From assembly GCA_963741945.1 (NCBI GenBank), contig CAVUKA010000001.1:320001-384000 (forward strand): 64,000 nt of DNA. The letters are read 5' to 3'. Below the pieces are notes generated by a model. The model was not told where the DNA came from. It did not search any database and saw only the letters and a list, made by a program, of their open reading frames with translations. This document shows, piece after piece, positions 6,471-40,033 of this stretch (the stretch's first letter is position 1; the number at the start of each line of letters is the position of its first letter). The DNA is from an uncultured Gemmatimonadales bacterium. Its GTDB lineage: Bacteria; Gemmatimonadota; Gemmatimonadetes; Longimicrobiales; RSA9. A program made the translations under genes and the position numbers.

Positions 6471-7841
6471 TCAATCCGAGCCGGTCTCCGGACCGGGCGT
6501 GTCCAGGGGGGGCCGGGGCTCCAGGATGAGCGCCAGTCGCACGATCCGGCGACCGTCCATGGCCAGGACCCGGAACCGCCCCTCGTCGAAGCGGACCTCG
6601 TCGCCGGGATGGGCAATACGCCCGAGCCGGCTCATCACGTACCCGGCCACGGTCGTATAGTCGTCCTCGGGCACAGCGATGTGGAAGCGCTCGTTGACCT
6701 CCACCACCGTGACCGCGCCCGAAATGAGAGCCGCCCCCTCTTCCGTTTCCAGGATCTCGTCCTGTTCCTCTTCGTGCTCGTCGCGGATCTCGCCGACGAT
6801 CTCCTCGAGCAGGTCCTCGATGGTCACGATGCCCGCGGTGCCGCCGAACTCGTCCACCACCACGGCAAAATGGATCCGCTCGCGCTGCATGTCGCGCAGC
6901 AGGTCTTCCACGGACTTGCTCTCGGGGATGTAGCGGGCGGGCCGCATGACCTCCTTCAGGTCCACCACGCCGTCGCGCTGGGCTCGCCAGACCTCACGGG
7001 CCAGGACCATTCCCAGGACGTGATCCAGGTTCTCCTCGTAGACCGGCAGACGGGAGTGGCCCTCGGCGATCATGACGTCGCCCACCTGATCCACCGTGAA
7101 GTCCACCGGCACGGCCACCACTTCGGTGCGCGGCGTCATCACTTCGGCCGCGCTCGTCTCGGAGAGGTCGAACACGCCCCGGATCATCTCCACCGGCTCC
7201 TTGGAGAGGAAGCCGGACTCGTAGGTCTGGTTCAGGATCATCTCGATCTCCTCGGGACGGTGCACCCTCTCCATCTCCGTGGCCGCGCGAAGCCCCATCA
7301 TGCGCAACAGGAGGTTGGCGGAGCCGTTGAGAACATGGATGACCGGGGTGAAGACGCGGGAGAAGATGATCAGGGGCGGCGAAGTCCAGAGGCTCACGGT
7401 CTCCGGGAAGAGCAGCGCCACGGACTTGGGCGCGAGCTCGCCCAGGACGATGTGCATGACCGTGATCAGGCTGAAGGCCAGCGTCCCCGCAACGGTGTGG
7501 GCGGCCAGCGCATCGAACGGCGACGGCAGTCCATGGAACGCCTGCATGAACACGACGGACAGCGTGCTCTCGCCCACCCACCCGAGCCCGAGCGACGCCA
7601 GCGTGATACCGAGCTGAGTGGCCGAGATGTAGTGATCCAGGTGGGTGAGGACGTGGGCGGCCATTTTCGCCCGCCGGCTCCCCTCCGCGGCCATGTGCTC
7701 CATGCGTGTCCGGCGCGCGCCCACCAGGCCGAACTCCGCGGCCACGAAGAACGCGTTGCAGCCGACGAGGAGGAGCGCGGCTGAGAGCCGCCAGGCCACC
7801 TGGGCAGCAGTGAGCGTGGCGACCGGGTCCGCTTCCATCAC
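6471..7841 (-). CDS. Hemolysin/CorC-HlyC family (CNNM + CBS + CorC domains)
   Basis: [40 protein letters not shown]. Confidence 0.92.
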
Positions 7842-8518
7842 GGCACGCCGAGGAGCGTCGGGAGCTGCGTGATGCGGTCTATGCAGGCGACGTCGTCCCG
7901 AGGCTCATCCACGAGCAGGACCGCTCGGATCCCGGCCCGCCTGGCACCCACCACATCCACTTCGAACGTGTCTCCCACGTACACGGTCTCCTCCGGCGCC
8001 ACACCCATGGCGTCGCACGCCATTCTGAAAATCCGGGAGTCCGGCTTCTCGATCCCCACCACGGCGGAATCCAGGATGACCTCGAACAGGTCGGCGAGGC
8101 CAGCGGCTTCGAGGAACTCGGCCACGCGACCGTCCGCGTTCGAGATCACGCCGAGGCGAAGCCCTGCGGCCTTCAGCCCCTCGAGCATCGCGCGGGTTCC
8201 GGGGACGGGACGGATCCACAGCCGGCCTTCCGCGTGACGCTTCCGGATGTCCCCGGCCACCGCCTCCAGCCGCTCCGCCGGCAGCCCGAGATGGTCGAAC
8301 AACGCCGTGAACCAGGCACGCGCCCGTGTCGCATCGGTACCGGGGTCGTCCGACCGCAGGATGTCACCCACGGCCGCCTGGGCGTGGCGTCGGGCCGCGG
8401 CAAACGCCGCCGCGTCCGCCTGCACACCTTCGCGGGCGAGGCGGTCCAGGATGAATTCGTGATCCGGATGGATGAGCGTGCCCCCGGCGTCCAGGAGCAC
8501 GGCTCGGAGCGCGGGCAT
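7838..8518 (-). CDS. HAD-family hydrolase
   Basis: DAGGTL, ISNAD, EKPD..IF, YVGD...DVVGA. Confidence 0.88.
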   Translation of the reverse strand: MPALRAVLLDAGGTLIHPDHEFILDRLAREGVQADAAAFAAARRHAQAAVGDILRSDDPGTDATRARAWFTALFDHLGLPAERLEAVAGDIRKRHAEGRLWIRPVPGTRAMLEGLKAAGLRLGVISNADGRVAEFLEAAGLADLFEVILDSAVVGIEKPDSRIFRMACDAMGVAPEETVYVGDTFEVDVVGARRAGIRAVLLVDEPRDDVACIDRITQLPTLLGVP

Positions 8519-10246
8519 CAGAAGAAGACCGGCTCCCGGAAGCTGCCGTAGACCGACTCGAGGGCGTTGCGGATCTCGAACAGCGTACAGTAGGCGCGCA
8601 CGCACTCCAGCATCGGCTCCACCACGTTCTCCTCCCCGCGCGCGGCCTGGCGGAGGCGCTCCAGCGTGGCCTCCACCCGGCCATCGTCGCGCGCGCCCCG
8701 GAGCTTCGCCAGGCGCTCGTCCTGCGTGCGCGCGGCCTCCTCGCCCACTTTCAGGATCTCGATATCCGTCTCGTCGTTGCCGCCCAGGAAATCGTTGACT
8801 CCCACCACCACGCGCTCGCCACTGTCGATCTCCCGCTGCTGCCGCTCGGCGCTGCGGGCGATCTCGCGCTGAAAGTACCCCTGCTCGATGCCCGGCACCA
8901 CGCCGCCCATGGTCTCGATCTCATCGAAGATCGCTTCGGCCTCCGCCTCGAGACCGTCCGTGAGGCTCTCCACGAAATAGGAACCCGCCAGCGGGTCGAT
9001 CGTGTTCGCGACGCCGGTCTCGTAGGCGAGCACCTGCTGCGTCCGGAGCGCGATCCGCACGCTCTTCTCCGTGGGCAGCGCCAGCGTCTCGTCCATGGAA
9101 TTGGTGTGCAGGCTCTGCGTCCCGCCCAGTGCGGCCGCCATGGCCTGATAGGCCACGCGCACGATGTTGTTCTCCGGCTGCGGTGCGACCAGGCTCACGC
9201 CCGCGGTCTGCGCGTGCGTGCGAAGGCGCCAGCTCTCCTCCTTCTTCGCCCCGTACTCCTCCTTCATGCGCCTCGCCCAGATCCGGCGCGCGGCGCGGAA
9301 TTTCGCGATCTCCTCGAAGAAGTCGTTGTGGACGTCGAAGAAGAAGCTGAGGCGCGGCGCGAAGTCGTCCACGTCGAGCCCCCGCTCGATCCCGCGGCGG
9401 ACGTACTCGAAGCCGTTGCGAAGCGTGTACGCCAGCTCCTGGCCCGCGGTGGAGCCGGCCTCGCGGATGTGGTAGCCGCTGATGCTGATGGGGTTGTACT
9501 TGGGCGCGTTCGTGGCGCACCACTCGAACATGTCCACGATCAGCTTGAGCGCCGGCTCCGGCGGGTAGATCCACGCGTGCTGCGCCTGGTACTCCTTCAG
9601 GATGTCGTTCTGGACCGTGCCCCGGAGCTTGTCGGGGGACACGCCCTGCTTTTCCGCCGCCACGACGTAGAAGCAGAAGGCCATGATGGCCGGGCCGTTG
9701 ATGGTCATGGAGACGCTCACCCGGTCGAGCGGGATGCCGTCGAAGAGCGTCTCCATGTCGGCCAGGCTCGAGATGGCCACACCGCACTTCCCCACCTCGC
9801 CCAGCGAGCGCGGGTGGTCGCTGTCGTAGCCCATGAGCGTGGGGAAGTCGAACGCCACGCTGAGCCCCGTCTGTCCCTGCTCCAGCAGGTACTTGTACCG
9901 CTGGTTCGTCTCGAGCGACGTGCCGAAGCCCGCGAACTGCCGTTTCGTCCACAACCGGGTCCGGTACATCGTGGTGTACGGCCCGCGCGTGAACGGGTAT
10001 TCCCCGGGGAAGCCCAGCTTCGCCAGATAGTCCCAGTCGACCCCGAGGTCCGCCGGCGTGTACAGCGGGTTCACGGGCGTCCCGGAGATCGTGCTGAACC
10101 GCACATCCCGCTCGCCCACACCTTCGTACGCCCGCTCCCACTCCGCCAACCGGGCGCGGAGCGCGTCCAGCTCGCGCTCCTGCGCCTCGAGTCGCGCCTC
10201 GAGCTCAGCACCGTCCGCCGGCAGGTCCTTCTCGACTGTGTCCCAT
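8518..10246 (-). CDS. Acyl-CoA mutase large subunit (methylmalonyl-CoA mutase family; isobutyryl-CoA mutase-like residues); apparent +1 indel just after the ATG
   Basis: RQFAGF, GLSVAFD, GTVQNDILKEY, ISISGYHIREAG, GGTQSLHTN. Intact frame is 8518-10149. The RBS-preceded ATG at 10246 is out of frame by one G. Confidence 0.9.
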
Positions 10247-28164: not shown

Positions 28165-29841
28165 CTACGGCCGCCGCGCGCCCGAGTCGGAGCGATCGCC
28201 CTGTCTCAGCGTCACTTCCTCCGCGCGCCCGCCTCTGACCGTGAACGCCACGCGGATGCTCGGGTTGTACACCACAGTGAACGCGTCCTCGCCCGCGGGA
28301 ACCAGGCGGCTCGGGGTGCCCGCGAATTCGGTCATGAGCCGCCCCGAGGAATCCGCGCCGTAGACCGTCAGCTCGAGGGTCTGCGAACCGACGGGCACGT
28401 CGTAGACCCCCTCGTACCGGCCCACCGCCCCGCCGTCCAGCGGCAGCCCTTCGTTCCCCGCGATCGCTCGCGACGGCGGGCACTCCGCGGACGCCCGCCT
28501 CCCGCGTCTGGCCCTTCCGTTGACGAACATGACGATCTCGGGCGCCTCGCCGGCCGGCTGCCTCGGGAACGCGAAGCTCCACTCCTCCCGCTTCGTGAAG
28601 AACAGCGTGTCCGTGGCGGCGTAGAGCCGCATCCGCACGTCCGTGGTGGGCTGGACCGTGAGAAAGCCATCGTCTTCCATCCGCACGTACCACGGGATGA
28701 AGTCGATGTAGTAGGTGCCCGCGAGGCGGGCGAGGTCCGCGGCCGGCACGTCCTCCTCCTCGATGGCGGACATCGGTGCATGGACGAGCAGGTCCGGGAC
28801 CAGGCTGTTGTCGAACTCTCTCGAGCTGGCGAGAAGGACCATCCCGACGCCACGCTCGGGATCGAACGCCATCCGGGCCGTGAAGCCATCCGTGTCGCCG
28901 CCGTGCTGGACGAGGCGGCGACCGTTGAGCGTGTAGCTCCACCACCCCAGACCCACGCTCCTGTCACCGGCCCCCATCGGACGCAGCGGCCGCTGCGTGT
29001 CGCGCATGGCGCGCCCGAGCTCGGTATCGGCGTCGCCGACGTTCGCGGCCAGGAACCGCAGCAGGTCCTCGACAGTCGAGCGGAGGCCGCCGGCCCCCTC
29101 CAGCGCCTCCGGGGCCTTCATCGGGGGGGCCACTCTTATCCCGTAGTGTCCCTCCACGAGCCGCTCCGCCGGCGTGCCTTCCGACCCGTAGTGGGTGTCG
29201 GCCATCCCCAGCGGGCCGAGAACGCGCTCCTCGATCAGCGATCGGAAGTCCGCCCCGGCCGCCCGGGCCAGCGCGAGGCCGAGGAGGCCCATCCCCACGT
29301 TCGAGTACTCGAACTCCACGCCTGGCTCCCTCTCCAGCCTGTAGTCGGAGAGAAGCGCGTACGCGTCGCCGACGGTCAGGTCGAAAGGGTCGGCCACGCC
29401 CCGTGCCGAGAGCAGCCCGACCATTGTCGCATCCGAAAGGCCGGACGTGTGGGTGGCCAGGTCCTCGAGGGTGATGGCCCGGCCATGGAACGCCCGCGCG
29501 CGGACCCCCGGCGGCAGGTACCTGGAGACCGGGTCGTCCAGCGCCACCTCTCCGCGCTCCACCATCTCCGCCAGGAGCGTGGCCGTGAAGACTTTCGTCA
29601 GCGAGCCGATCTCGAACGACGACCGGCTGTCCAGCGGCGCTCCTCCGTCCGCGACGCTCCCGTAGCTGACCACTCGCGTCGAGCCGTCCGCCTCGAGAAC
29701 GCCCAGAACGATGCCCGGCGCCTCGCCGTCTTCGACGAGGTAGCGGAGCATCAGCGCCAGGTCCGCGTCGCCGGGAAACGCCCGCGTCGGGCCGGCCGGC
29801 GCGCAGGACAGCGCCAGAAGACACGTCGCCGCGGCGATCAT
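28165..29841 (-). CDS. Serine hydrolase (class C beta-lactamase / AmpC-like family)
   Basis: SLTK (SxxK), YSN, HGG, LATHTSGL; signal peptide; start approximate. Confidence 0.88.
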   Translation of the reverse strand: MIAAATCLLALSCAPAGPTRAFPGDADLALMLRYLVEDGEAPGIVLGVLEADGSTRVVSYGSVADGGAPLDSRSSFEIGSLTKVFTATLLAEMVERGEVALDDPVSRYLPPGVRARAFHGRAITLEDLATHTSGLSDATMVGLLSARGVADPFDLTVGDAYALLSDYRLEREPGVEFEYSNVGMGLLGLALARAAGADFRSLIEERVLGPLGMADTHYGSEGTPAERLVEGHYGIRVAPPMKAPEALEGAGGLRSTVEDLLRFLAANVGDADTELGRAMRDTQRPLRPMGAGDRSVGLGWWSYTLNGRRLVQHGGDTDGFTARMAFDPERGVGMVLLASSREFDNSLVPDLLVHAPMSAIEEEDVPAADLARLAGTYYIDFIPWYVRMEDDGFLTVQPTTDVRMRLYAATDTLFFTKREEWSFAFPRQPAGEAPEIVMFVNGRARRGRRASAECPPSRAIAGNEGLPLDGGAVGRYEGVYDVPVGSQTLELTVYGADSSGRLMTEFAGTPSRLVPAGEDAFTVVYNPSIRVAFTVRGGRAEEVTLRQGDRSDSGARRP

Positions 29842-29980
29842 CAGGCGACGACGACGCGGGCGGCGAACCCGCTCGCCCGTCTCCACCGTCACGAGCCGGC
29901 CTCGCCCGCCACGATGCGCGACGGCCGTGGACGCCAGCACCGACGGCACCGGATGAGCCGCAGCGATTTCAACCGGCGAG

Positions 29981-30520
29981 TCACGAGAGCCGGGCCGGAA
30001 CGTAGGTCAACCGGATCACGTCCTCGCCGATCCGATCACTGGTCATGAGGCGCAGCCGCGGCCGCGGTCCCGCGAAATACGGAGTGCCGTGCCCGAGGAC
30101 GACCGGGTGCAGGTAGATTCGATACTCGTCGATCAGCCCGAGCTCGGTGAGGCTCTGCGCCAACGCCGGGCCGGCAACTTCGATCTCCCCGTCGCGCTCG
30201 GCCTTGAGGTCGCGGATCGCCGCCTCGAGATCATCACCGAGGAGCCTGGCGTTCGGGCCGACCGACTTCAACGAGCGCGATACCACCCATTTCGGCTGGC
30301 GCCGCCACGCCGCGGCGAAGGCGTGTTCGTCTGCATCCCATTCGGGATGATCGTCGTCCCAGTAACGCATGATCTCGTACATCGTCCGACCGTACACACT
30401 GCCCGCCTGCCCCTGAGCCTCCTCGATGAAGTGGCGGAAGAGCGTCGGGCCGGGCGCAAAGGCCGCATGGTCGACGTAGCCGTCCAGGGACTGGTTCATT
30501 CCGAACACGAGCCTGACCAT
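29981..30520 (-). CDS. Dihydrofolate reductase / RibD-C family protein; possibly an eroded terminal cassette
   Basis: SLDGYV, GRTMYE, PKWVVSRSL, GLIDEY, PVVLG.G. Confidence 0.88.
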   Translation of the reverse strand: MVRLVFGMNQSLDGYVDHAAFAPGPTLFRHFIEEAQGQAGSVYGRTMYEIMRYWDDDHPEWDADEHAFAAAWRRQPKWVVSRSLKSVGPNARLLGDDLEAAIRDLKAERDGEIEVAGPALAQSLTELGLIDEYRIYLHPVVLGHGTPYFAGPRPRLRLMTSDRIGEDVIRLTYVPARLS

Positions 30521-30602
30521 GCTACCTGCCCTCCTTGCGCGCAATGAATGGTAGGGCTTCATCACTGACGCGTGCGCCTGGCAATTCCGACACAAGCGCC
30601 TG

Positions 30603-30732
30603 AACCAACGTGCACTTCCCTACAGCATGAGCGCCGCAGACTGCGTCGAAACTGCGATCACCTCACCAGCTTCAACACGGCCGCGGCGGGTTCTCCGAAG
30701 CGACCGAAGGCCGCGAAGGCGCTCACCGTTTG
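30603..30732 (-). repeat. attC-like site 1 (left arm degenerate; core split by IS110, remainder at 31679-31685)
   Basis: CCTCACCAGCTTCAACACGG.CGCGGCGGGTTCTCCG..GC..CCG.AGGCCGCG.AGGCGC..ACCGTTTG is near-identical to site 3. Confidence 0.75.
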
Positions 30733-31678
30733 ATCTTACCAACAAGTCCCCTGGGTTCAGATAATGTCCTCAACTGTCAACCTGGAGGCGCACCATGCTG
30801 CACACGGGGATCGATCTGCATAAGCGCACCTGCGTCCTGGCTACCGTGGACGCGGACGGCGAGGTCGTAGCCGAAGCGGAGCTCCGCACCCGTCGGCCGG
30901 CCATCGCCCGCTACTTTGCACAGCTCCCGGGACCCCACCGGGCCACCGTAGAAGCCACCAGCGGCTGGTACTGGATCCGGGACCTGCTGGTCGCGGAAGG
31001 CGTGACGCTGACCCTCGCGCACGCCAAATTCCTGAAGGCCATCGCCTACGCGAAGGTGAAGACGGATGCCGTCGATGCCCTCACGCTGGCCCAGCTTCTC
31101 CGCGTCGGCATGATCCCGGAGGCGCACATGATCTCCGCTGAATTCCGACCGCTCCGCGACGTGATGCGGACCCGGCTCCGCCTGATCCAGAAAGAGGTCG
31201 GGACCCGCAACAGCATTCACCGGCTCCTTGAGAAGTACAACGTTCGGGGCGTCGCGGACCTGCCGCCCATGGCCCAGCTCCAGGCCGCCTGTCACCGGGA
31301 GCGGAGGGAGCTTCTCCGGGAGCACGTCCGCCGACTCGAGAAGAGCCTCCACCCGCACCTGGTGCCTGACCCCGACGTCCAGCGCCTGCTCGCGATCCCC
31401 GGGATCGGCAAGGTCGGGGCGTTCACGATTCTCCTGGAAGTGGACGGGATCGAGCGGTTCCCGAGCGAGCGACACTTCTTCTCCTACTGCCGCTTGGTAC
31501 CGGGGGCCGCGAACTCCGGTGGCAGGGACCGCCACGTCCGATTCGATACCCACTCCGGCCCGGCCAGACCTGCCGTCGCTCGCGGACTCGAGAAGCGTCG
31601 CACGATCGAAAAGCGAATCAGAATCTCTGATTCCGCACAGGATCATCGTGCTCCTTGACGAAGGACTTGTTAATGGTG
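30733..31678 (+). mobile_element. IS110-family element (IS1111-like sub-terminal IRs), internally deleted, inserted in attC-like site 1
   Basis: Sub-terminal IR AACAAGTCC / GGACTTGTT; TG at both junctions; removing it restores CCGTTTG|TTAAGTG. Confidence 0.8.
30795..31658 (+). pseudogene. IS110 transposase, C-terminally truncated
   Basis: GIDLHK, VEAT, KTDAVDA, IPGIG, SYCRLVP..NSGG; then family-like sequence is lost. Confidence 0.85.
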
Positions 31679-31739
31679 TTAAGTGACGTGGCGCCCAGCC
31701 AGCTCCATGGCGCTGACCGAACGGGCGGTTCTGCTGTTC

Positions 31740-31964
31740 CTATAGCAACGCCACGAACTCGTCCACCGACAGTCCAGCCTGTCGGATCAACGCGCGCAAC
31801 GTTCCCTTCCGCAGCTCTTTGTGGTCCGGAATCGTCAGGCGGCGATGAGGGGGTTCCGCCTGTCTCAGTATGATGTGACTTCCTCGCTGGCGATCGACAA
31901 CGTATCCGATCCTGCCGAACGCCTTGACCGCCTCGCGTCCGGAGACGACTGGCAGTTCGGCCAC
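31740..31964 (-). CDS. hicA: HicA-family toxin (cassette)
   Basis: RQRGSHIIL, TIPDHKEL.KGTL. Confidence 0.92.
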   Translation of the reverse strand: MAELPVVSGREAVKAFGRIGYVVDRQRGSHIILRQAEPPHRRLTIPDHKELRKGTLRALIRQAGLSVDEFVALL

Positions 31965-32171
31965 CTAGACCTCCACGATCTCCTCGTGAATGGAGGGAGG
32001 CACCGGTTCCTGGTGATCTTCGAGGCTCTCCAGATACCCTGCGATCGCCTCTCGGATGTTCTCGAGCGCCTCCTGCCGAGTCTCACCCTGGCTCACACAC
32101 CCGGGGAGCGCCGGCACCTCCGCCACGAAGAACCCGTCCTCGTCCTCCTCGATTAGCACCCGATACTTCAT
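31965..32171 (-). CDS. hicB: HicB-family antitoxin (cassette)
   Basis: VPALPGCVSQGETR.EALENIREAI. Confidence 0.92.
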   Translation of the reverse strand: MKYRVLIEEDEDGFFVAEVPALPGCVSQGETRQEALENIREAIAGYLESLEDHQEPVPPSIHEEIVEV

Positions 32172-32231
32172 CGAAGTCCTCCCGTTGGCAGCCGCCCCAA
32201 TCTAATGCATGAGGCGAACCCACGTGATGGC

Positions 32232-32388
32232 ACTTAACGTTCAAGAGCTGCGACGCCGGCGCGTCCTCACGGGCCTGCGCGGCTAATCTCTTCGATCCTT
32301 CCGGTACCGCTCCCAAGGGCCACACGCTTGCGCCGGTGTTCCCCGGAGCCGCGCGCAGCGCGGCGTAGGCGCAACTTGTTTGTTAACT
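32232..32388 (-). repeat. attC-like site 2 (divergent subtype)
   Basis: ACTTAAC...GCCGGCGC / GCGCCGGTG...CCGGAGCCGCGCGCAGCGCGGCGTAGG...GTTTGTTAACT. Confidence 0.75.
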
Positions 32389-32458
32389 GAAGTGCCGTGC
32401 ACCGATGGTTGATCCATCCATCCTCTCCCAGGCGGGTCAGCAGCTGCGAGGGGATGTC

Positions 32459-33283
32459 TCAGCGTCGGTACAGGCCGCCCACCAACCTGTACCCGAACTG
32501 CAGGGTCGACGGTGCTATTGGCACCGTAGTAGCAAGGGGATGGGTCCCTTCAATCACCCAGGCCGTATCAGGCGCGCATGCCCGTTCGCGGTGCCCGGCG
32601 AAAGCGATGCGTACAACTCCATTGAAGGGAGACGTCTGCGGAGGAACAAGGACTTGGGTCCCGGCAGAGCTTGATCCCCCTGATGTCGGGCCCTGCGGGG
32701 AGCAACTGATTCGCAGAGCGAGTCCCTCGAGGGTAACCGACGCTCGCCGCTCGCCCGACGGTGTCGTCGTGAGTCTTACGTCACCGTAGCTCGCATAGTG
32801 TCCCAGTTCCCTCATGTACGCCACGTAGGCCGAATCCGGAACCCAGAACTCCAGCTCAAGAAACGGGACGCCCAGGTCAAGATCAGTGTCCCCGACCGGG
32901 GCGATCCGGGCGAACCACAATCCCACGGCCCCTCCGTCGGGCCAATGTGGGCTTCTTCCGTTCAGCGCAAACTCACCCGCCTGGAGGATCTCAAGAAACG
33001 AGACGCCCCATTCACGCTGTGTCGGGTGGGCCTCTAGGTAGTCTTCCGCCCAAGACATCCCCGCGGAGGACAGGTCACCGAGAGAGACAAACCGAACACC
33101 GGGAGGGAGACGGTCGGACACGCGTTCCGGGTCAAAAGCACGCCAACTGACGATCTCCTCAGGGTCGCTGACGACCCACCTGGTGCCGGCTCCCTCCGGC
33201 AGCGCAGGGATCTGGCCGGCAACGAGACTGGGCTGGAGCCCAGCGAGACCAAGCAAGGCAAGCTCAATCCATGGGTGTTTCAT
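32459..33283 (-). CDS. Hypothetical secreted protein (cassette)
   Basis: 274 aa, signal-peptide-like N-terminus, fills the space between two att sites. Confidence 0.75.
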   Translation of the reverse strand: MKHPWIELALLGLAGLQPSLVAGQIPALPEGAGTRWVVSDPEEIVSWRAFDPERVSDRLPPGVRFVSLGDLSSAGMSWAEDYLEAHPTQREWGVSFLEILQAGEFALNGRSPHWPDGGAVGLWFARIAPVGDTDLDLGVPFLELEFWVPDSAYVAYMRELGHYASYGDVRLTTTPSGERRASVTLEGLALRISCSPQGPTSGGSSSAGTQVLVPPQTSPFNGVVRIAFAGHRERACAPDTAWVIEGTHPLATTVPIAPSTLQFGYRLVGGLYRR

Positions 33284-33394
33284 CGCTCGGGCCTCTCGGG
33301 GGGCATCAGCGCGGAGTCGGTGTGCAACCTACCAAGAAGTCGCTCCTTCTGATCTGGTCCAAGTGTCCGACTCAGTCGTTCCCGAAGGCATTTC

Positions 33395-33545
33395 AGATAA
33401 CGTCTCCAGGTTGGCGACCCGCCGCGCCGATACCTCTAGCACGCGATCACCTTCGAAACAGCGGCAGCCTCACCAGCTTCAACACGGTCGCGGCGGGTTC
33501 TCCGGAGCGGCCGCAGGCCGCGCAGGCGCCAACCGTTTGTTAACC
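33395..33545 (-). repeat. attC-like site 3 (subtype A)
   Basis: AGATAAC-N7-GGTTGGCG-ACCCGCCGCG...CGCGGCGGGT-[28 nt]-CGCCAACC-N4-GTTAACC. Confidence 0.85.
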
Positions 33546-33574
33546 GCCGTGTTCTGCCCACAGCCTGGCGGAGG

Positions 33575-33871
33575 TCACCTCCGGGCCTGCCAACGCTTCG
33601 GATCGCGGCGGGAATGGAAAACGGAGAGTACCACGATCTCTTCCGCGCTCACTCTGAAGAGAATGGCATATGGGAATCGCCGAACAACGGCCCTCCGGAC
33701 ATCCCGATACAGAATGGGAAATCGGAGAGGATTCCGCTCGATCGCTGAGAAAGCCGCATCGATGACGCGGACGAATTCCGCTCCCAAGCCCAAGGAACGC
33801 TCCGAATACCACGCTGCGGCTTCCTCGAGTTCGGCGTCGGCCGCAGGGCGAACAACGAAGCGGCGGCTCAC
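33575..33871 (-). CDS. RelE/ParE-family toxin (cassette)
   Basis: A..ELEEAAAWY, LG.EF, RRFPY.I.F, VFH.RRDP. Confidence 0.9.
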   Translation of the reverse strand: MSRRFVVRPAADAELEEAAAWYSERSLGLGAEFVRVIDAAFSAIERNPLRFPILYRDVRRAVVRRFPYAILFRVSAEEIVVLSVFHSRRDPKRWQARR

Positions 33872-34098
33872 CCGTACTTCTTGTACAACCGCTCCCGGAC
33901 TTCCTCCCAGGGAATAGCAGAATCCGGGTCCGCTTCATGTTCTGCCAGCCTACGGTCCAGTTCCGCCTTCTGGGCCTCAGTTAATGGATAGGCGTCCGCG
34001 TCCGTAGCGATGCTGTCCCACAGGTCCTCCACCAACTGAATCCGCTCAGCGACCGACAGCTTGAGCAGTTCCTCGATTGGTACACTCGACATCCGCAA
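33868..34098 (-). CDS. Putative addiction-module antitoxin component (cassette)
   Basis: LSVAERIQLVEDLWDSI, ELDRRL, IPWEEV. Confidence 0.9.
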   Translation of the reverse strand: MRMSSVPIEELLKLSVAERIQLVEDLWDSIATDADAYPLTEAQKAELDRRLAEHEADPDSAIPWEEVRERLYKKYG

Positions 34099-34158
34099 GC
34101 TCCTTCCCTGAAGTCCCTTGCTCCTAATCTGCTACAGAAACGCCGAGTGGAACATGGG

Positions 34159-34308
34159 GGTTAACGGACGAAGGCTGCTGATCCGGCCTCCTTCACCTGA
34201 CCAGCTCAGCAACTATCGAAACCATGAACTCCTCACCAGCGGCCGCCCTTCTCCGCCGGATACTCCGGAGCGACCGAAGGGAGCGAAGGCAGCAGCCGGT
34301 TGTTAACT
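34159..34308 (-). repeat. attC-like site 4 (subtype B)
   Basis: GGTTAAC-N7-GGCTGCTG-ATCCGGC...GCCGGAT-[28 nt]-CAGCAGCC-N4-GTTAACT. Confidence 0.85.
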
Positions 34309-35349
34309 GATGTCCCCCAGCAGTGAGGGTGGTACATCCGCTCCAAAGAAATCAGCCACGTCGTAATTCCACACGAAGAACGTCCCTCCCAAGGGGGCCA
34401 CCGGACCAACCTCAATCTCACCGTCGATACGGAAAACCTTTACGCGGGTCCCTAGCTTGCCGGTCTGTCGCAGATGTAGCTGGCCTCTCCTGGCGCGCTC
34501 CTCGGTGGTGAAGAAGCGGCAGGCTCCATCGAGATGAATCACAGCATCTCGGGCTTTTGAGAAGATGGCATGGAAGTAGCGACTGGGCACGCACCATTCA
34601 TGGTCCGGCTCGGGCACCTCTTCAACGGCCAAATGCACTTCTCCCCGCCGCGGACTCCAGTGGTAATCGGTGAATTCGCCGTGACTCAAGGATGAAGGAT
34701 GCCACCGGCCGAAAGCTTCTTTGTCGATCGTCCTCACATCATCCCACTTCAACGGCGGGCCATACCACAACATGCGGTAGGACATTCGCGGAAACGTGTC
34801 CGAGGGCCCATGCAGGAGAGGGTCAAGTCGAACTCGAGCAACCCGCCCAACCTCCTCTGCACCAAGCGCCCGTGTAAGCCAGTATGAAGAATTGACCCCT
34901 GGTGTGGGTGGAAGGACCGTGAATGCGTGCCCCCCTCGCACCAGCACACCGTCTTCAATATCGAACGCTGCAAGCGGCACGAGATTGTCCTCGCACAACT
35001 CCAAATCCTCAACGGCAGGCATACCGTACGGAGGCGGACGCCCGTCCCCGTTCTCTGCAGTCAACAAACCTGCGCGCTTGTCGCAGATCCGCCGGTTCAA
35101 CTCACGGATGACGACCCACTCTCGCGCAAACCACTCTCGCTTCTCATGAGGTAGATCGCCGTGGAGGCCCTCAAAGTGGCGATCCGCCTGCGCCTCTCTG
35201 ATTTCCTCCTCAGAAACACTGCCGAAAGCCAGCCGCATCTCGGAATTCAGCGGGTGGTCCCTGTCGACCTCGATCCGGCCTACTTCGAACAGCGGTCCTA
35301 TCGGGCTGGCGCCGAAATACTCCTCCAAAGCGGTCGGAATCGAAACCAT
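34303..35349 (-). CDS. Hypothetical protein, ~348 aa (cassette)
   Basis: Long ORF filling the cassette; TAA stop lies inside the att core; start taken at MVSIPT. Confidence 0.8.
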   Translation of the reverse strand: MVSIPTALEEYFGASPIGPLFEVGRIEVDRDHPLNSEMRLAFGSVSEEEIREAQADRHFEGLHGDLPHEKREWFAREWVVIRELNRRICDKRAGLLTAENGDGRPPPYGMPAVEDLELCEDNLVPLAAFDIEDGVLVRGGHAFTVLPPTPGVNSSYWLTRALGAEEVGRVARVRLDPLLHGPSDTFPRMSYRMLWYGPPLKWDDVRTIDKEAFGRWHPSSLSHGEFTDYHWSPRRGEVHLAVEEVPEPDHEWCVPSRYFHAIFSKARDAVIHLDGACRFFTTEERARRGQLHLRQTGKLGTRVKVFRIDGEIEVGPVAPLGGTFFVWNYDVADFFGADVPPSLLGDIS

Positions 35350-35379
35350 TTCAGCGGTCACGACGGTCTTGGGGATATC

Positions 35380-35530
35380 AGTTAACGTTTCCAGGTTGGC
35401 GACCCGCCGCGCCACACCCTCCAGCGCGCAGCCGCCTTCGACATCTCACGAACCTCACCAGCGTCAACCCGGCCGCGGCGGGTTCTCCGGAGCTCGCGAA
35501 GCGAGCGCAGGCGCCAACCGTCTGTTATCT
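35380..35530 (-). repeat. attC-like site 5 (subtype A)
   Basis: Same arms as site 3; branch hairpin GCTCGC-GAA-GCGAGC. Confidence 0.85.
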
Positions 35531-35572
35531 GACGTGAGCCGCACCTGTCCAGCCGCGAACGCGGCAGAAGAA

Positions 35573-35842
35573 TCAGGCCGCCTTGACGGGCGCCAGCTCT
35601 TCTGGGTCGGGCCTGCCCAATCCAAGCTTGTCGAACACGGCCATGATCTCATCGACCGACACGTAGCCTGGCGAGACAATCTCGATGCCGAGGGGCGCCC
35701 CGTCCTCTGCGTAGTCAATCAGGAGTTCGGGGGTGACTTCCTCGGTCCGCGCGCTCTTCTGCCCTGGCTTACGATCCAGGTAAACGTAGGCCGCGAACGG
35801 CTTTCCCTTCCGGTAGGTAACCTCTAGCGAGAGTCCGTTCAT
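35573..35842 (-). CDS. DUF2283-like protein (putative antitoxin; cassette)
   Basis: AAYVYL, LIDY..DG.PLGIEI. Confidence 0.75.
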   Translation of the reverse strand: MNGLSLEVTYRKGKPFAAYVYLDRKPGQKSARTEEVTPELLIDYAEDGAPLGIEIVSPGYVSVDEIMAVFDKLGLGRPDPEELAPVKAA

Positions 35843-36099
35843 ACGTCATCGCTCCTGGGGTATGCCGTCACCACCATGACGATCCGATTCTCATCGTCTG
35901 GCTCCACAACCACGATCCAAGACGTTCCTGCATGGCGCGTACGAACGAGCCAGCGGCCCGGCCGCTTCGAAGGGAGAAGCGCCATCCCGCCTTCCAGCAT
36001 GGCGCGGATTTCGACTTCCGAAAAGCCTCTCTCCTCCATCCTCAATTCGACGTGGGCCGTGAACGCCAGCGGCCAATCCCACCAGTCCGGACGTTCCAT
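35839..36099 (-). CDS. DUF4258-like protein (putative toxin; cassette)
   Basis: FTAHVELRMEERG, VVTAY; overlaps the DUF2283-like partner. Confidence 0.75.
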   Translation of the reverse strand: MERPDWWDWPLAFTAHVELRMEERGFSEVEIRAMLEGGMALLPSKRPGRWLVRTRHAGTSWIVVVEPDDENRIVMVVTAYPRSDDV

Positions 36100-36154
36100 C
36101 CTCTTCCTCCGCAGAGGGCCTCTCGCAAGCTAATGCTGCCGGGCGGCTCATGTC

Positions 36155-36306
36155 AGATAACGTTTCCAGGTTGGCGACCCGCCGCGCCACGACCTTTAGC
36201 GCGCGACCGCCTTCGAAACGACGATTCCCTCACCCAACTTCCAGACGGTCGCGGCGGGTTCTCCGGAGCGGCCGCAGGCCGCGGAGGCGCCAACCGTTTG
36301 TTATGC
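36155..36306 (-). repeat. attC-like site 6 (subtype A)
   Basis: Same arms and branch as site 3. Confidence 0.85.
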
Positions 36307-36425
36307 GCAGTGGCTTTTCCGCCTCCGTAGGACGGCAAATTCCCGCAGTTAGCCGCCTCCTGAGGTTGTGGAGTTGCCCCGAATCGGTGGACACCTCATG
36401 AGTGAGGGAGAGAGGAGGGTCCACG

Positions 36426-36734
36426 ATGGGACGCAATTCGTATCCGCCGGAGTTCCGGCGGCAGATGATCGAGCTGGTTCGGGCGGGACGCACGCCGGAG
36501 GAGCTGTCCCGGGAGTTTGAGCCATCCGCGGGCGCCATTCGCAACTGGGTCCGGCAGGCGGATCTGGACGAGGGCCGGCGGGAAGACGGGCTCACGACGG
36601 AGGAGCGCCAGGAGCTGCGCCGACTCCGCCGGGAAGTGAAGCAGCTGAAGACCGAGCGGGAGATTCTGGCAAAAGCCGCCGCCTGGTTCGCGGGGGAGAC
36701 GAAGCACGACCCGAAGAAGCGTTCGGGTTCGTGA
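36426..36734 (+). CDS. IS3 OrfA (HTH)
   Basis: YPPEFR, IRNWVRQ, E...LRRE..QL..EREIL.KAAAWFA. Confidence 0.92.
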   Translation: MGRNSYPPEFRRQMIELVRAGRTPEELSREFEPSAGAIRNWVRQADLDEGRREDGLTTEERQELRRLRREVKQLKTEREILAKAAAWFAGETKHDPKKRSGS

Positions 36735-37582
36735 AGGCGAATCAGGCGGAGTACCCGGTGACCGTGATGTGTGAGGTGCTGGGTGTCTCCCGAAGTGGGT
36801 ACTACGCATGGCTCGAGCGACCACCGTCGAAGCGAGCCATCGCGAACGAGGAGCTGACGGAGCGGATCCGGACGATCCACAAGAACAGCCGAGAGACGTA
36901 CGGCTCGCCCCGGATCCTGGCGGAGCTGAGAGACGAGGGGGAGCGGGTGGGCAAGAACCGGGTCGCTCGCCTCATGAGCGCGGCCGGCATCGAAGGCGTG
37001 AGCCGGAGGCGCCGCCGCGGCACCACGAAGAAGGACCGGGATGCTCGACCGGCGCCGGACCTGGTGGAGCGGGATTTCGCGGCTCCTACGGGGCCGGATC
37101 AACTGTGGGTGGCCGACATCACCTACATCCCCACGTGGGCGGGCTTCCTCTATCTCGCGGTCGTGGTGGACGCCTGGAGCCGCCGCGTGGTGGGCTGGGC
37201 CATGGCGAACCACCTCCGCACCGAGCTCGTGCTGGATGCCCTCAACATGGCGCTCTGGCAGCGTAAGCCGGAGGCTGTGGTCCATCACTCGGACCAGGGC
37301 ACGCAGTACACGTCCATTGCGTTCGGCCTGCGGTGCAAGGAAGCGGGAGTCCGGCCGTCCATGGGCTCCCGAGGAGATTGCTACGACAACGCAATGTGTG
37401 AGAGCTTCTTTGCCACCCTTGAGTGCGAGCTGCTGGACCGGCGGCGCTTTCGCACCCAGGCCGAGGCGAAGATGGCCGTCTTCGACTTCATCGAAGGCTT
37501 CTACAATCCGTGTCGCCGCCACTCGTCGCTGGGCCAGATGAGCCCGGTCAATTTCGAGAAAGAGCAAGCAACGGCGGCGTGA
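36731..37582 (+). CDS. IS3 OrfB DDE transposase
   Basis: VSRSGYY, YGSPRI, WVADITY, HHSDQGTQY, DNAMCESFF. Confidence 0.95.
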   Translation: MKANQAEYPVTVMCEVLGVSRSGYYAWLERPPSKRAIANEELTERIRTIHKNSRETYGSPRILAELRDEGERVGKNRVARLMSAAGIEGVSRRRRRGTTKKDRDARPAPDLVERDFAAPTGPDQLWVADITYIPTWAGFLYLAVVVDAWSRRVVGWAMANHLRTELVLDALNMALWQRKPEAVVHHSDQGTQYTSIAFGLRCKEAGVRPSMGSRGDCYDNAMCESFFATLECELLDRRRFRTQAEAKMAVFDFIEGFYNPCRRHSSLGQMSPVNFEKEQATAA

Positions 37583-37624
37583 AAACCTCAATGTTCACCT
37601 GTCCACTGAACCGGGGGAACTCCA

Positions 37625-37906
37625 GTCGTGCGGATTCCGGTTCGTTAACAGGATGGCAGGGAGGAGTTCCTCGGCATCTTCACCGTTGATCTGATGCCAT
37701 GAGAGGACCTCGTCCTCGAAATGCGCCCCAACAACTCCTCTGAGGATGACGGCTCCGGACCGGGATGCGGCATCAGCCATCCGGTCGAAATTCTGATAGA
37801 GGACGTCGAGGACAGGTTCCTTCCAGCCGTAATCCAGGAGGTACATGTAGCAGCGGCGCTCAACTCCCTCCGGGAGCTCCGCAAGCGAATGGATCATCAA
37901 ACCCAT
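37625..37906 (-). pseudogene. Cassette hypothetical protein truncated by IS3
   Basis: ORF MGLMIHSL...YLLDYGW...LPAILLTNRNPHD runs into the IS3 right end. Confidence 0.7.
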
Positions 37907-37960
37907 TGAGCCCTCACAGCTTCTTTACCTCGAGGCGACAAGAGCGCGTGTGCATGTGGC

Positions 37961-38114
37961 GTATAACGGATAAAGGCTCCTGATCCGGCCTCCAAAACCT
38001 CGACCGGCTCAGCAACTTTCGAAACTACTTGCATCTCACCACCGGCCAGGCGTACGCGGCCGGATACTCCTGCAGCGAGCGTCAGCGAGCGAAGGCAGGA
38101 GCCGGTTGTTAAAC
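37961..38114 (-). repeat. attC-like site 7 (subtype B)
   Basis: GTATAAC-N7-GGCTCCTG-ATCCGGC...GCCGGAT-[30 nt]-CAGGAGCC-N4-GTTAAAC. Confidence 0.85.
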
Positions 38115-38153
38115 GGCGTTGGCCGCCCGTCCGAAGGCGTTCCCTTCCGCCCA

Positions 38154-38666
38154 TCAGAAGCGTCTGGAAATGCCAACGGCGAACCTCGCTACGGTACCTG
38201 CGAAGGGATCGACCGCCCACACGCGTAGCTCCCCCAGGATTCCCCAGGCTTGCGATACCTGCAAACGGAGACCGCCTGCGCCCGACAACGTCCAGGTCCA
38301 ATCCTGTCCATCCGCAAAAGCCACCCGCGCACCACCAATGCCCCCGCCTACGTACGGACCAAAACGCCCCTCAAACGGCGTGAACTGCAACTGGACCTCT
38401 GGCATCAGATACCAGCGGTCCCGGGAAAACTGACTTCGATAATCGAAATAGGTCAGACCCGGTTCGATCGCGATCCACCGAATCGGATTGATCCGTATCC
38501 GGGCCGAGTAGACTTGGGTCCACCCAACGCCACTGAGGTCGTAGTTGGCCGGCCCGCCCGCCAGTGACACCTCGGTTCGCGGATACGCTTGCGCGGTGGT
38601 GACGGAGGGAAGCGCCAGCAACATGGCAAACGCCACCGTCATGACCTTCGTCGATACCCTTGCCAT
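38154..38666 (-). CDS. Outer-membrane beta-barrel protein (first cassette)
   Basis: GGAGGT RBS, signal peptide (AQA), PYVGGGIG, C-terminal Phe. Confidence 0.8.
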   Translation of the reverse strand: MARVSTKVMTVAFAMLLALPSVTTAQAYPRTEVSLAGGPANYDLSGVGWTQVYSARIRINPIRWIAIEPGLTYFDYRSQFSRDRWYLMPEVQLQFTPFEGRFGPYVGGGIGGARVAFADGQDWTWTLSGAGGLRLQVSQAWGILGELRVWAVDPFAGTVARFAVGISRRF

Positions 38667-38694
38667 CGAGACCTCCCTATCAAAGGCCAATGCC

Positions 38695-38725
38695 GTTTAA
38701 CGTTTGCGTTCCCGAACTCGGTTCG
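38695..38725 (-). other. Putative attI-like site at the head of the array
   Basis: Minus strand CGGGAAC-GCAAAC-G|TTAAAC at the first cassette boundary, with no attC-type arms beyond it. Confidence 0.45.
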
Positions 38726-39208
38726 CGTTCGCACGCCCTTTGCCTCGGCCGCGGCATCCTTCTCCGAATGCGGCTCGGGTAAGCTGCGATTCTCGCCAAT
38801 TTCCCGTACGCCATTCGCGAATCAGCCGTGCGGCGTCGATGGAGCGAACCGGGGTTCGGAAAAAAGCTTCTGGCTGCGAGAGCCAGGGCCTGGCGGCCAC
38901 GGCGCGAGGCCGCGGCGGCCTGGCGGGGCGCGGCCGGTGTCGCGTGGCCGGGCCCGGGACGCGAACGGCGGGTCGAACGGGGGTTCGGGAGGCTGCGAGC
39001 CGTCGGGTCCGAAGGCCAAGATGCCCCGGAGTCCGGGAGCCGGCAAGGAACGCGTGCCGGCGCGGGCGGTCAGTTGCGGGTGTGGATGGCCATGTCGACG
39101 GTCGTGGCGTGGGTCGGGGCGTCATTCGGGGCGAGGCGGATCCAGGGGCGAAATCCCCCCCCAGCCGGCGTGAGGGGATCCGGCCCGCGGCCCCCTTCCT
39201 TCCCGGCT

Positions 39209-39388
39209 TCAATCCGCCGACTTGTCCCTTCCCCGCCGGCTCCGGGCCACCCGCATCGTCGCCCAGACCAGCATCAGCACCAGCCACGGCAACGCGAGCC
39301 ACCAGTGTCCCGAAAGGCTGTCCCGCCAGTCGGCTAGCGGAGGCAGCTGGAAGAGGACGCCCACGAGCGCTCCCATCACAGCCGCCAT
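39209..39388 (-). CDS. Small hypothetical membrane protein (59 aa)
   Basis: Manual translation MAAVMGALVGVLFQ...WWLALPWLVLMLVWATMR; true start may lie upstream. Confidence 0.45.
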   Translation of the reverse strand: MAAVMGALVGVLFQLPPLADWRDSLSGHWWLALPWLVLMLVWATMRVARSRRGRDKSAD

Positions 39389-39463
39389 GACCAGGACCTC
39401 CCAGAGGGAGGGCGGGCGCCTCGGGCCCGGGTCCGGCCGACGACAACGGTGGCGCGACGGTCG

Positions 39464-40033
39464 CTACCCTCCGCCTTCCCCCCGGATCCGCTGCCAGAGC
39501 GAGGGCCTGGGCGCCGGCGGCGCCGGGGGCCAGTCGTCGCCGAGCACCACGGAAGCGTCGAGCACGAGCGTGCTGTCCACGGCCGTGGCGACGGAGTCGA
39601 TGCCCAGGGCTGCGGCCACGGCGCGGGCGCGGACGCCATCCCCCACGCGGTCCAGGACCACGCTGGCGTCGTGGTCGAAGCGGCCCGCGTTTCCGAAGAA
39701 GACCACGTCGAAGCCATCGGCCCGCAGGAGGCGGGTGGCATCGAGGGCGAGGCCGCCCCGGCCGGAGCCGTTGAGCACTTCCACGCGGACGTGGCCGAGC
39801 GCGGGATCGATGGGCTGGACGGCGGGGAGCGGCGCCGGGGGATCCGCGACGTGGCTGGCGGCTGCGCCCGGCGCGACATCGTCGTCCTCCCCATCGATGC
39901 CGGCGATGGCGGAGACGATGAAGGCCAGCACCAGCGCGGCGACCACGGCCAGGCCAATGCTGATGCCGCCGGAAGCGCGGGCAGCGCGGCCGCCGCCCGG
40001 CCCGTGTTTCCCGCCCCGCCTACGGCCGGCCAT
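39464..40033 (-). CDS. LytR C-terminal domain protein
   Basis: One TM segment then VEVLNGSGRGGLA, GFDV...GNA, VVLG.D. Confidence 0.85.
   Translation of the reverse strand: MAGRRRGGKHGPGGGRAARASGGISIGLAVVAALVLAFIVSAIAGIDGEDDDVAPGAAASHVADPPAPLPAVQPIDPALGHVRVEVLNGSGRGGLALDATRLLRADGFDVVFFGNAGRFDHDASVVLDRVGDGVRARAVAAALGIDSVATAVDSTLVLDASVVLGDDWPPAPPAPRPSLWQRIRGEGGG

Follow-up and report, generated by a model that had tools for sequence, protein, structure and literature searches.

Integron recombination is the textbook case of a reaction on a structure-specific, single-stranded site, with the choice of strand attributed to extrahelical bases that are read by a domain found only in IntI. In most cassettes, self-pairing of the ends goes beyond the 7-nt R boxes to 9–11 consecutive nt (Bouvier 2009, PMC2727003, citing Rowe-Magnus 2003 and Sundstrom 1991). 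The same paper describes the extrahelical attC bases as strand-choice determinants read by the I2 region of IntI. For 263 attC sites, Nivina 2016 (PMC5027507) gave G:T mispairs as 1.24 on bottom versus 0.39 on top strands, and the excess was proposed to favour folding of the bottom strand. Here we analyzed a 64,000-nt stretch of the genome of an uncultured Gemmatimonadales bacterium (contig CAVUKA010000001.1; hereafter the window, with coordinates given as positions within it and + as its forward strand). Positions 31678–38701 of the window are an integron-like array of seven gene cassettes whose coding strand is the minus strand, and the ends of these cassettes differ from those of the canonical cassettes sampled by a long stem with a wobble at a fixed place.

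The array and its relatives share with canonical integrons an imperfect hairpin that ends in AAC/GTT triplets, an asymmetric unpaired spacer between the R and L helices, cassettes made of an open reading frame (ORF) and a 3′ attC, a crossover past which the first bases are those of the next cassette, self-complementary cassette ends that reach past the 7-nt box, and toxin–antitoxin cargo. In contrast, the recombinase of this family has no IntI-specific domain, the attC sites are 136–143 nt long with a conserved branch hairpin in one arm, and the end stem reaches 15–17 nt with an invariant wobble, whereas the canonical stem ends at 7–14 nt. As in the skew of Nivina 2016 (PMC5027507), a bottom-strand G.T is a non-pairing C/A on the top strand; that skew is a statistical enrichment bound to no set place in the site, whereas in this family wobbles are fixed at two places of the R arm, positions 0 and 11, and position 11 falls in cassette-specific sequence beyond the conventional attC. 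Like the extrahelical bases (Bouvier 2009, PMC2727003), the mark is a conserved helix irregularity that sits in one arm when the bottom strand is folded, joined by an extra T in some relatives. Unlike them, it lies outside the R box, whereas they occur inside the R and L boxes or between these, and it consists of a wobble or mismatch instead of a flipped-out base; the protein domain that reads such bases is absent from the recombinase.

Integration of CTX phage by XerC/XerD is similar in that recombinases without I2 exchange one strand pair between a folded single strand and a duplex (PMC3442271); there a phage genome integrates at dif and here the substrate is a cassette array; the two are likened by mode of exchange only. 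Duplex Xer/dif sites have two arms and a 6–8-bp spacer, whereas the arms of this family are 136–143 nt apart and are joined only by folding. Insertion sequences and miniature inverted-repeat transposable elements are recognized by their own transposase or target-site duplications and by scattered copies; here the copies occurred only in arrays, between attC sites. In the published literature, supplements excepted, we found no account of a fixed mispair outside the R box or of such recombinase arrays. As far as we searched, the fixed wobble in a longer, cassette-specific stem and its tie to recombinases without the domain are new, while the general principles had already been published.

Paired ends of the cassettes

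We built a covariance model of the attC family (R1) from 11 sites of the window's own genome (G000). In that genome all 14 sites found by R1 fell either in the window array or in one other, sister array (C1:846356–855744; L009). R1 matched 27 of 151 related genomes, G000 counted (G020 is in this tally but was not sampled). Twenty array regions were taken from 11 of the matched genomes; a renewed search of these, with an E limit of 0.1, yielded 166 matches, of which the top 150, from 22 sources, were aligned.

The left end of each cassette on the + strand was compared position by position with the reverse complement of its right end. The initial annotation had reported seven such end pairs in the window, with G versus A at position 11 in each. 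All seven pairs were reproduced and the asymmetry was confirmed in 7/7. Identity extended to about position 12, 15, 16, 16, 19, 9 and 17 in cassettes 1–7, respectively. The left end of cassette 1 (31678/32238) is decayed, and its homologue in another genome (L015 2063–2623) pairs through position 16.

For the larger set, 130 inter-site segments were reduced to 124 unique end pairs, to 109 with GTT at both ends and finally to 76 with identical positions 5–7. This last criterion is the classical R box and does not involve the positions that were tested; only end sequences were used to remove duplicates, and related genomes share cassettes. Position 11 was G/A in 74 of the 76 cassettes (12 genomes) and G/C in the other two, both in G143. 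Identity was 0.97, 0.95 and 0.74 at positions 8–10, fell to 0.00 at position 11, returned to 0.95, 0.93, 0.91, 0.87 and 0.71 at positions 12–16, and was 0.47 at position 17 and at background from position 18; some arms were perfect for 19–22 nt. Under a looser selection, 89 of 91 cassettes had G/A at position 11. Thus, both the extension and the asymmetry proposed from seven cassettes persisted in the larger set and became sharper.

When left and right ends were re-paired at random, identity at positions 12–15 dropped to 0.28–0.52, indicating that the complementarity is cassette-specific and not merely a common consensus. Only positions 4 (A), 8 (G) and 11 are invariant throughout the family. 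Position 10 carried T on the left in 24 of 91 cassettes, with C as partner in 11 (a second + strand wobble), A in 12 (T.T) and T in one. Segments with unmatched ends (17/108) were mostly long and probably contain missed sites; G/A was still present in 10 of these 17. Pairing of the ends on the + strand gives 10 Watson-Crick pairs, a G.T at position 11, which on the top strand is A.C, and 4–6 further pairs. Judged from these comparisons, the inverted repeats continue the R-box stem of the attC outwards, and the end signature is real, non-chance and specific to this family.

Start or stop codons were considered as the cause of position 11 and ruled out, as the starts and stops of the ORFs lie well inward of the arms.

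Sites, recombinase and distribution

AAC and GTT were in register in 131 of the 150 aligned sites and out of register in 19. The consensus fold consists of AAC, a 7-nt spacer, an 8-bp helix, an 8–10-bp helix, a terminal region, a return arm with a branch hairpin, a 4-nt spacer and GTT. The branch hairpin, about 28 nt long and conserved, lies between the main helices in the return arm (3′, + strand; for example 36254–36281), and two of its pairs co-vary. Among 146 distinct members, 22 of the 27 modelled pairs showed compensatory changes, and 95.9% of cells were paired versus 81.1% in shuffles and 23–42% with slid partners. The elements have the imperfect hairpin, the conserved AAC...GTT ends and the paired R and L boxes of an integron attC, and are attC-like recombination sites. 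As for extrahelical bases, the two sides of the spacer differ in length (7 versus 4 nt) and the 28-nt branch lies in one arm; single flipped bases could not be clearly identified in the sequence. A second wobble was found directly inside the AAC/GTT core (position 0), 11 bp from that at position 11: G followed AAC and T preceded GTT in 125 of 131 sites, and the pair was GU in 136 of 146 alignment rows. An Rfam search of 29500–39500 at E up to 1 gave no match. The branch hairpin would create a three-way junction, which is unusual among attC sites.

The mobile unit was delimited by a cassette present in both arrays of the genome. Window 33398–34166 and L009 6242–7010 are 99.74% identical (2 mismatches in 769), their flanks diverge, and identity ends inside TAAC on both sides. 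This duplication indicates that the unit is an ORF segment with the attC on its left in + coordinates; copies of cassettes were present in other genomes too. Cassettes of this family thus move as discrete units, as those of integrons do, with the crossover placed by the limits of identity in the core triplet, inside TAAC/GTTA. A crossover there implies that both outer arms are inherited with the cassette. As the ORF segment travels with its left attC, the minus strand is the top strand and the plus strand the bottom strand, and each cassette is an ORF segment plus a folded attC 3′ of the ORF on the minus (coding) strand. In a separate case, a widely shared antitoxin cassette homologous to window cassette 3 measured 2715 bp instead of 627 bp (L010, oriented 7434–10148, G001), evidently through an insertion of about 2 kb.

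The sister array adjoins a 366-amino-acid (aa) tyrosine recombinase, P0001. Its best family match was the integron-integrase model TIGR02249 (208 bits versus a cut-off of 265), followed by XerA, XerC and XerD. Alignment with the canonical IntI of the same genome revealed 42 residues missing exactly at the IntI-specific insertion; the additional domain that characterizes the IntI subfamily of integron integrases is therefore lacking. The predicted model (mean predicted local distance difference test score, 80) was nearest to VchIntIA (2A3V) among solved structures, then to XerA. P0001 is also extended at its N-terminus by a module of about 95 residues, on which a whole-chain fold search was uninformative. 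Homologues with 47–90% identity stand beside 7 of 16 array regions of relatives (8 of 18 with the own genome), and in all eight of these regions the 3′ end of the recombinase gene faces the array and the gene runs in the direction of the cassettes. The signature belongs with arrays that are served by an IntI-related tyrosine recombinase without the IntI-specific (I2) domain and with an extra N-terminal module.

A profile of six such recombinases, searched against named genome contigs, detected relatives in metagenome-assembled genomes (MAGs) of Gemmatimonadota and many in Bacteroidota and other groups. R1 gave 0 matches at 80 distant recombinase loci, and strict motif pairing found few. We therefore used a second covariance model (R2), built from 11 sites of Flavobacteriia-type arrays, which gave 38 matches. 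Ends matched in 18 of the 24 inter-site segments at eight loci (Flavobacteriaceae, Polaribacter, Winogradskyella, Gilvibacter, Jejudonia, two Bacteroidetes MAGs and one Calditrichales MAG), and in 18/18 of these cassettes A at the cassette start stood against G in the other arm. The A/G lay exactly at position 11 in 14 of the 18, three of them with T.T at position 10; in the other four (L037, L051, L067) the G-bearing arm had one extra T just before position 10. Pairing resumed for 3–4 nt past the wobble. A/G was present in five of the six unmatched segments as well, and the inner wobble was kept in 34 of 35 sites. The recombinases of the eight loci are 31–39% identical to P0001 over the best segment, and the same mark beside such distant enzymes suggests that it is old and has been maintained. 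The extra T would be a bulged base beside the wobble on the bottom strand.

Canonical IntI cassettes were compared as controls, 88 in total: 11 of class 1, 24 of Gemmatirosa and 53 of other Gemmatimonadota. None of the three sets had a fixed wobble with a resumed stem; complementarity ended at 7–14 nt with mixed types of mismatch. The class 1 set came from six plasmids, with ends read by eye. Identical runs were 12 nt in aadB, aadA7 and aadA2, 11 nt in aadA5, 8 nt in dfrA14 and arr-3, 7 nt in dfrA17, dfrA12 and a cassette annotated dfrA1, 8 nt in the cassette next to the latter, and about 4 nt in a DUF1010 cassette; a position-11 asymmetry was found in none of the 11. On the megaplasmid of Gemmatirosa kalamazoonensis (NZ_CP007129.1, 841836–872804; L116), a canonical IntI is followed by at least 25 co-oriented attC sites of 96–97 nt. 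A hairpin scan that required AAC/GTT pairs in the minimum-energy fold missed known sites, and a looser scan, which recovered four of six known sites, was applied to canonical arrays only, where it recovered 22 of the 25 Gemmatirosa sites. Identity in the 24 Gemmatirosa cassettes was 0.71–1.0 through position 11, 0.04 at position 12 and at background beyond, pairing being exactly 11 nt long. The Gemmatirosa sites resemble aadA-type sites.

For the other Gemmatimonadota, 20 loci with IntI above the curated cut-off were taken; 16 loci gave 89 segments (82 unique), of which 53, from 11 loci in ten genomes, were identical at positions 5–7. Their identity was 0.96, 0.91, 0.70, 0.58, 0.49 and 0.49 at positions 8–13 and then at background. 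The first mismatch fell anywhere from position 8 to 16 and was of mixed type, and 1.25 of the next four positions were identical, indicating no resumption. In line with the literature on cassette ends, canonical ones pair past the R box and then stop, whereas those of the window family are interrupted at 11 and resume through 15–17. Within the sampled cassettes, the signature is conserved from Gemmatimonadota to Bacteroidota and missing from canonical ones. In the canonical loci examined, the array lies downstream of intI, an 'inverted' layout.

Canonical IntI above the cut-off was present in 165 of 401 sampled genomes of the phylum (three unpublished genomes are in this tally and were not sampled). 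The own genome also has two such genes (L001, G000:C1:1400101-1403808; L002, G000:C6:2528-6229), so that canonical systems and those without the domain coexist in the phylum and in this genome. Around these two intI genes, self-BLAST detected no repeated family of attC-like sites and the hairpin scan none, leaving no in-genome control. The copy on C1 has a different N-terminus and adjoins an ORF with a P-loop NTPase motif, which we take to resemble an IS21-type IstB helper gene.

Features of the window array

The array consists of seven ORF-bearing segments, with every ORF on the minus strand, and six structured elements of 136–143 nt between them. R1 placed seven sites of the attC family across 30582–38114. 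The features are as follows.

30582–30736, + strand: attC of the R1 family with its 3′ junction cut by an insertion sequence (R1 match, 63.9 bits; nhmmer model positions 49–145)
30737–31677, + strand: IS110-family insertion just ahead of the GTT of cassette 1, transposase ORF 30795–31658 (Pfam DEDD_Tnp_IS110, Transposase_20)
31678–32238, − strand: cassette 1 ORF segment, HicA/HicB pair; an end arm of ~17 nt on each side
32239–32381, + strand: attC body, 143 nt, folded site of cassette 2
32382–33401, − strand: cassette 2 ORF segment, 274-aa ORF without a Pfam match; arms pair to position 15, G/A at 11
33402–33538, + strand: attC body, 137 nt, which belongs to and moves with cassette 3
33539–34165, − strand: cassette 3 ORF segment, Unstab_antitox antitoxin and 132-aa partner; arms pair to position 16
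34166–34301, + strand: attC body, 136 nt
34302–35386, − strand: cassette 4 ORF segment, 370-aa ORF without a Pfam match; arms pair to position 16
35387–35523, + strand: attC body, 137 nt
35524–36161, − strand: cassette 5 ORF segment, DUF4258/DUF2283 pair; arms pair to position 19
36162–36299, + strand: attC body, 138 nt
36300–37967, − strand: cassette 6 ORF segment, 103-aa ORF, split by an IS3-family element; G/A at 11 retained, no pairing past 11
36402–37582, + strand: orfA/orfB of the IS3-family element inside cassette 6
37968–38107, + strand: attC body, 140 nt
38108–38701, − strand: cassette 7 ORF segment, outer-membrane beta-barrel-like protein, 178 aa; arms pair to position 17
38702–38725, + strand: possible attI remnant, a 15-nt block in common with the cassette–recombinase junction of the sister array; no recombinase gene follows

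The cargo comprises HicA/HicB, the Unstab_antitox module, the DUF4258/DUF2283 pair, the outer-membrane beta-barrel-like protein and three ORFs without a Pfam match, and is typical of sedentary integrons. With seven sites and no recombinase homologue in the window, the array has the composition of a CALIN (cluster of attC sites lacking an integron integrase), defined by at least two attC sites and no integrase within a few kilobases. Among the fetched arrays, the 15-nt block after the last cassette occurred only in the window (38702–38725) and at L009 12437–12470, which makes the case for an attI weak; possibly, the window array is an integron-like platform whose recombinase has been lost. At L009 a 9-nt direct repeat comes before the block and the recombinase gene after it.

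The truncated IS110-family element at 30737–31677 (287-aa ORF) is inserted precisely where an attC ends (…CCGTTT) and the GTT of cassette 1 follows. The IS1111-attC group is known to target attC sites, and this insertion recalls that group. Cassette 6, which bears the IS3-family element, is the sole window cassette whose arms stop pairing past position 11.

Strand choice and competing explanations

The initial annotation had put forward three possible roles for the ends, namely a bias towards integration, selection of the strand or a trace of how cassettes are made, and had proposed that the long outer stem can form only in the excised circle. This last point holds, as the stem needs both ends of one cassette; in the array form the upstream arm of one cassette is joined to the start of the next, and only the invariant positions pair. 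Its assignment of G.T to the bottom (+) strand and A.C to the top strand also proved right, as shown by the cassette duplicated between the two arrays. Other arm mismatches in the 76-cassette set were G.T on + and A.C on − rather than the reverse by 23 to 5; together with the inner wobble, this bias suggests that the + strand is the one kept foldable. The invariant G.T pairs would fit recombination of the + (bottom) strand only. Folding of the + strand was predicted with DNA parameters. The mean was −47.7 kcal/mol for the circle form and −38.4 for the array form (gap 9.3), and 81 of 83 cassettes were more stable as circles. With the outer stem taken by itself, the bottom strand was predicted to be 1.6 kcal/mol more stable than the top (77/83 cassettes).

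The explanation that we consider probable is that the end stem is an extension of the attC R-stem with fixed bottom-strand wobbles, which favours the circle as substrate, the wobbles marking the strand or being read by the enzyme. In the excised circle, the cassette's own 5′ start would pair with the sequence just upstream of its attC, and this long stem would offer a duplex arm of full length to the monomer of the recombinase at the R box. A free circle would then be a much better folded substrate than the hybrid sites of an array, and capture would be favoured over excision. The fixed wobbles would mark the bottom strand, be read directly by the enzyme, or both, and they may replace the recognition of extrahelical bases that canonical IntI performs with the domain missing here. 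A more specific version is tentative, although conceivable: across a widespread family without I2 (Gemmatimonadota, Bacteroidota and Calditrichales), two G.T wobbles one helical turn apart would bracket a 10-bp R arm and act as a device for strand choice or recognition, possibly read by the N-terminal module, while the outer stem would make the circle the preferred substrate and thereby build in a bias towards capture.

Several observations weigh against these proposals. In the circle form the predicted bias between strands is small, the bottom strand being 1.7 kcal/mol more stable on average and in 56 of 83 cassettes, and in the array form there is no strand difference (38/83); so small a gap suggests that the wobble, if it matters, acts through recognition and not through stability. 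The bottom (+) strand is taken as the recombined one by analogy and from the wobbles. About 11 bp may be a natural arm length for a recombinase, as in Xer/dif. Position 12 was A/G in 12 of the 24 Gemmatirosa cassettes, and canonical systems may thus have a weaker relative of the mark. The selection of cassettes required matching ends, and the unmatched pairs that missed attC sites yield were set aside. As for the enzyme, no recombinase homologue lies near the array in the window, 10 of 18 array regions have no recombinase within the DNA examined, and the resemblance of the N-terminal module to Pfam HARP is weak and only suggestive (E 0.009; 16 bits versus a cut-off of 25).

Alternatively, G and A at position 11 might be separate sequence contacts belonging to two half-site consensuses (GTTAnnnGnnG and GTTAnnnGnnA) and read in the double-stranded or array context, the wobble being incidental. 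Positions 4, 8 and 11 are indeed invariant whether or not the ends belong together, and the G/A kept in the unmatched end pairs (10 of 17, and 5 of 6 in Bacteroidota) is in line with this. However, positions 5–10 and 12–16 co-vary within cassettes, which only pairing explains; the variants at positions 10–11 (T.G, T.T and the extra T on the same arm) preserve a + strand irregularity and not a sequence; and the remaining mismatches lean 23 to 5 towards G.T on the + strand. We regard this reading as unlikely. Somewhat less likely still is that the ends display a general, documented property of ordinary integron cassettes with nothing specific to this family. The initial annotation had placed the extension outside the standard description of attC, and that part was not upheld, since pairing to 9–11 nt is stated for most cassettes (PMC2727003). 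The bottom-strand G:T bias is published as well (PMC5027507), and aadA-type class 1 cassettes pair over 11–12 nt. What stood is the fixed position and the resumed pairing: the 88 canonical cassettes end variably, with mixed mismatches and no resumption, whereas the window family is fixed in 74 of 76 and resumes for 4–6 nt.

The complementarity could also be a passive footprint of how cassettes arise, one end being copied from the other, for example, without selection. Nothing supports this directly, although the arms are cassette-specific and at times perfect for 19–22 nt. Copying would not yield an invariant mismatch, and the sharp profile of 10 pairs, wobble and 4–6 pairs is conserved across phyla, beside recombinases 31–39% identical to P0001. 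Decayed copies exist, such as window cassette 1 compared with its L015 homologue, which indicates that the intact ones are being maintained; we consider a passive origin very unlikely. Hardly credible is that the segments are transposon-like elements with terminal inverted repeats and not cassettes. Inverted repeats of 12–19 nt do bound each ORF segment, but no segment brings its own transposase, the genes of IS110 and IS3 type being insertions; structured, co-varying attC sites separate them, the arrays adjoin a tyrosine recombinase, and the mobile unit takes in one adjacent attC.

In our favoured explanation of a paired end stem with fixed wobbles, an enzyme family related to integron integrases but without the IntI domain serves large cassette arrays in at least two phyla, and the cassettes bear another, sharply conserved structural mark beyond the conventional site. 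Such systems would be overlooked or wrongly delimited by integron finders for which the IntI domain and 7-nt R boxes are a requirement, and the 11-position signature would be a simple means to pair cassette ends and to detect missed sites. If the mark directs strand choice or binding, it would be a second solution to the strand-choice problem and would bear on the evolution of integrases from Xer-like ancestors.

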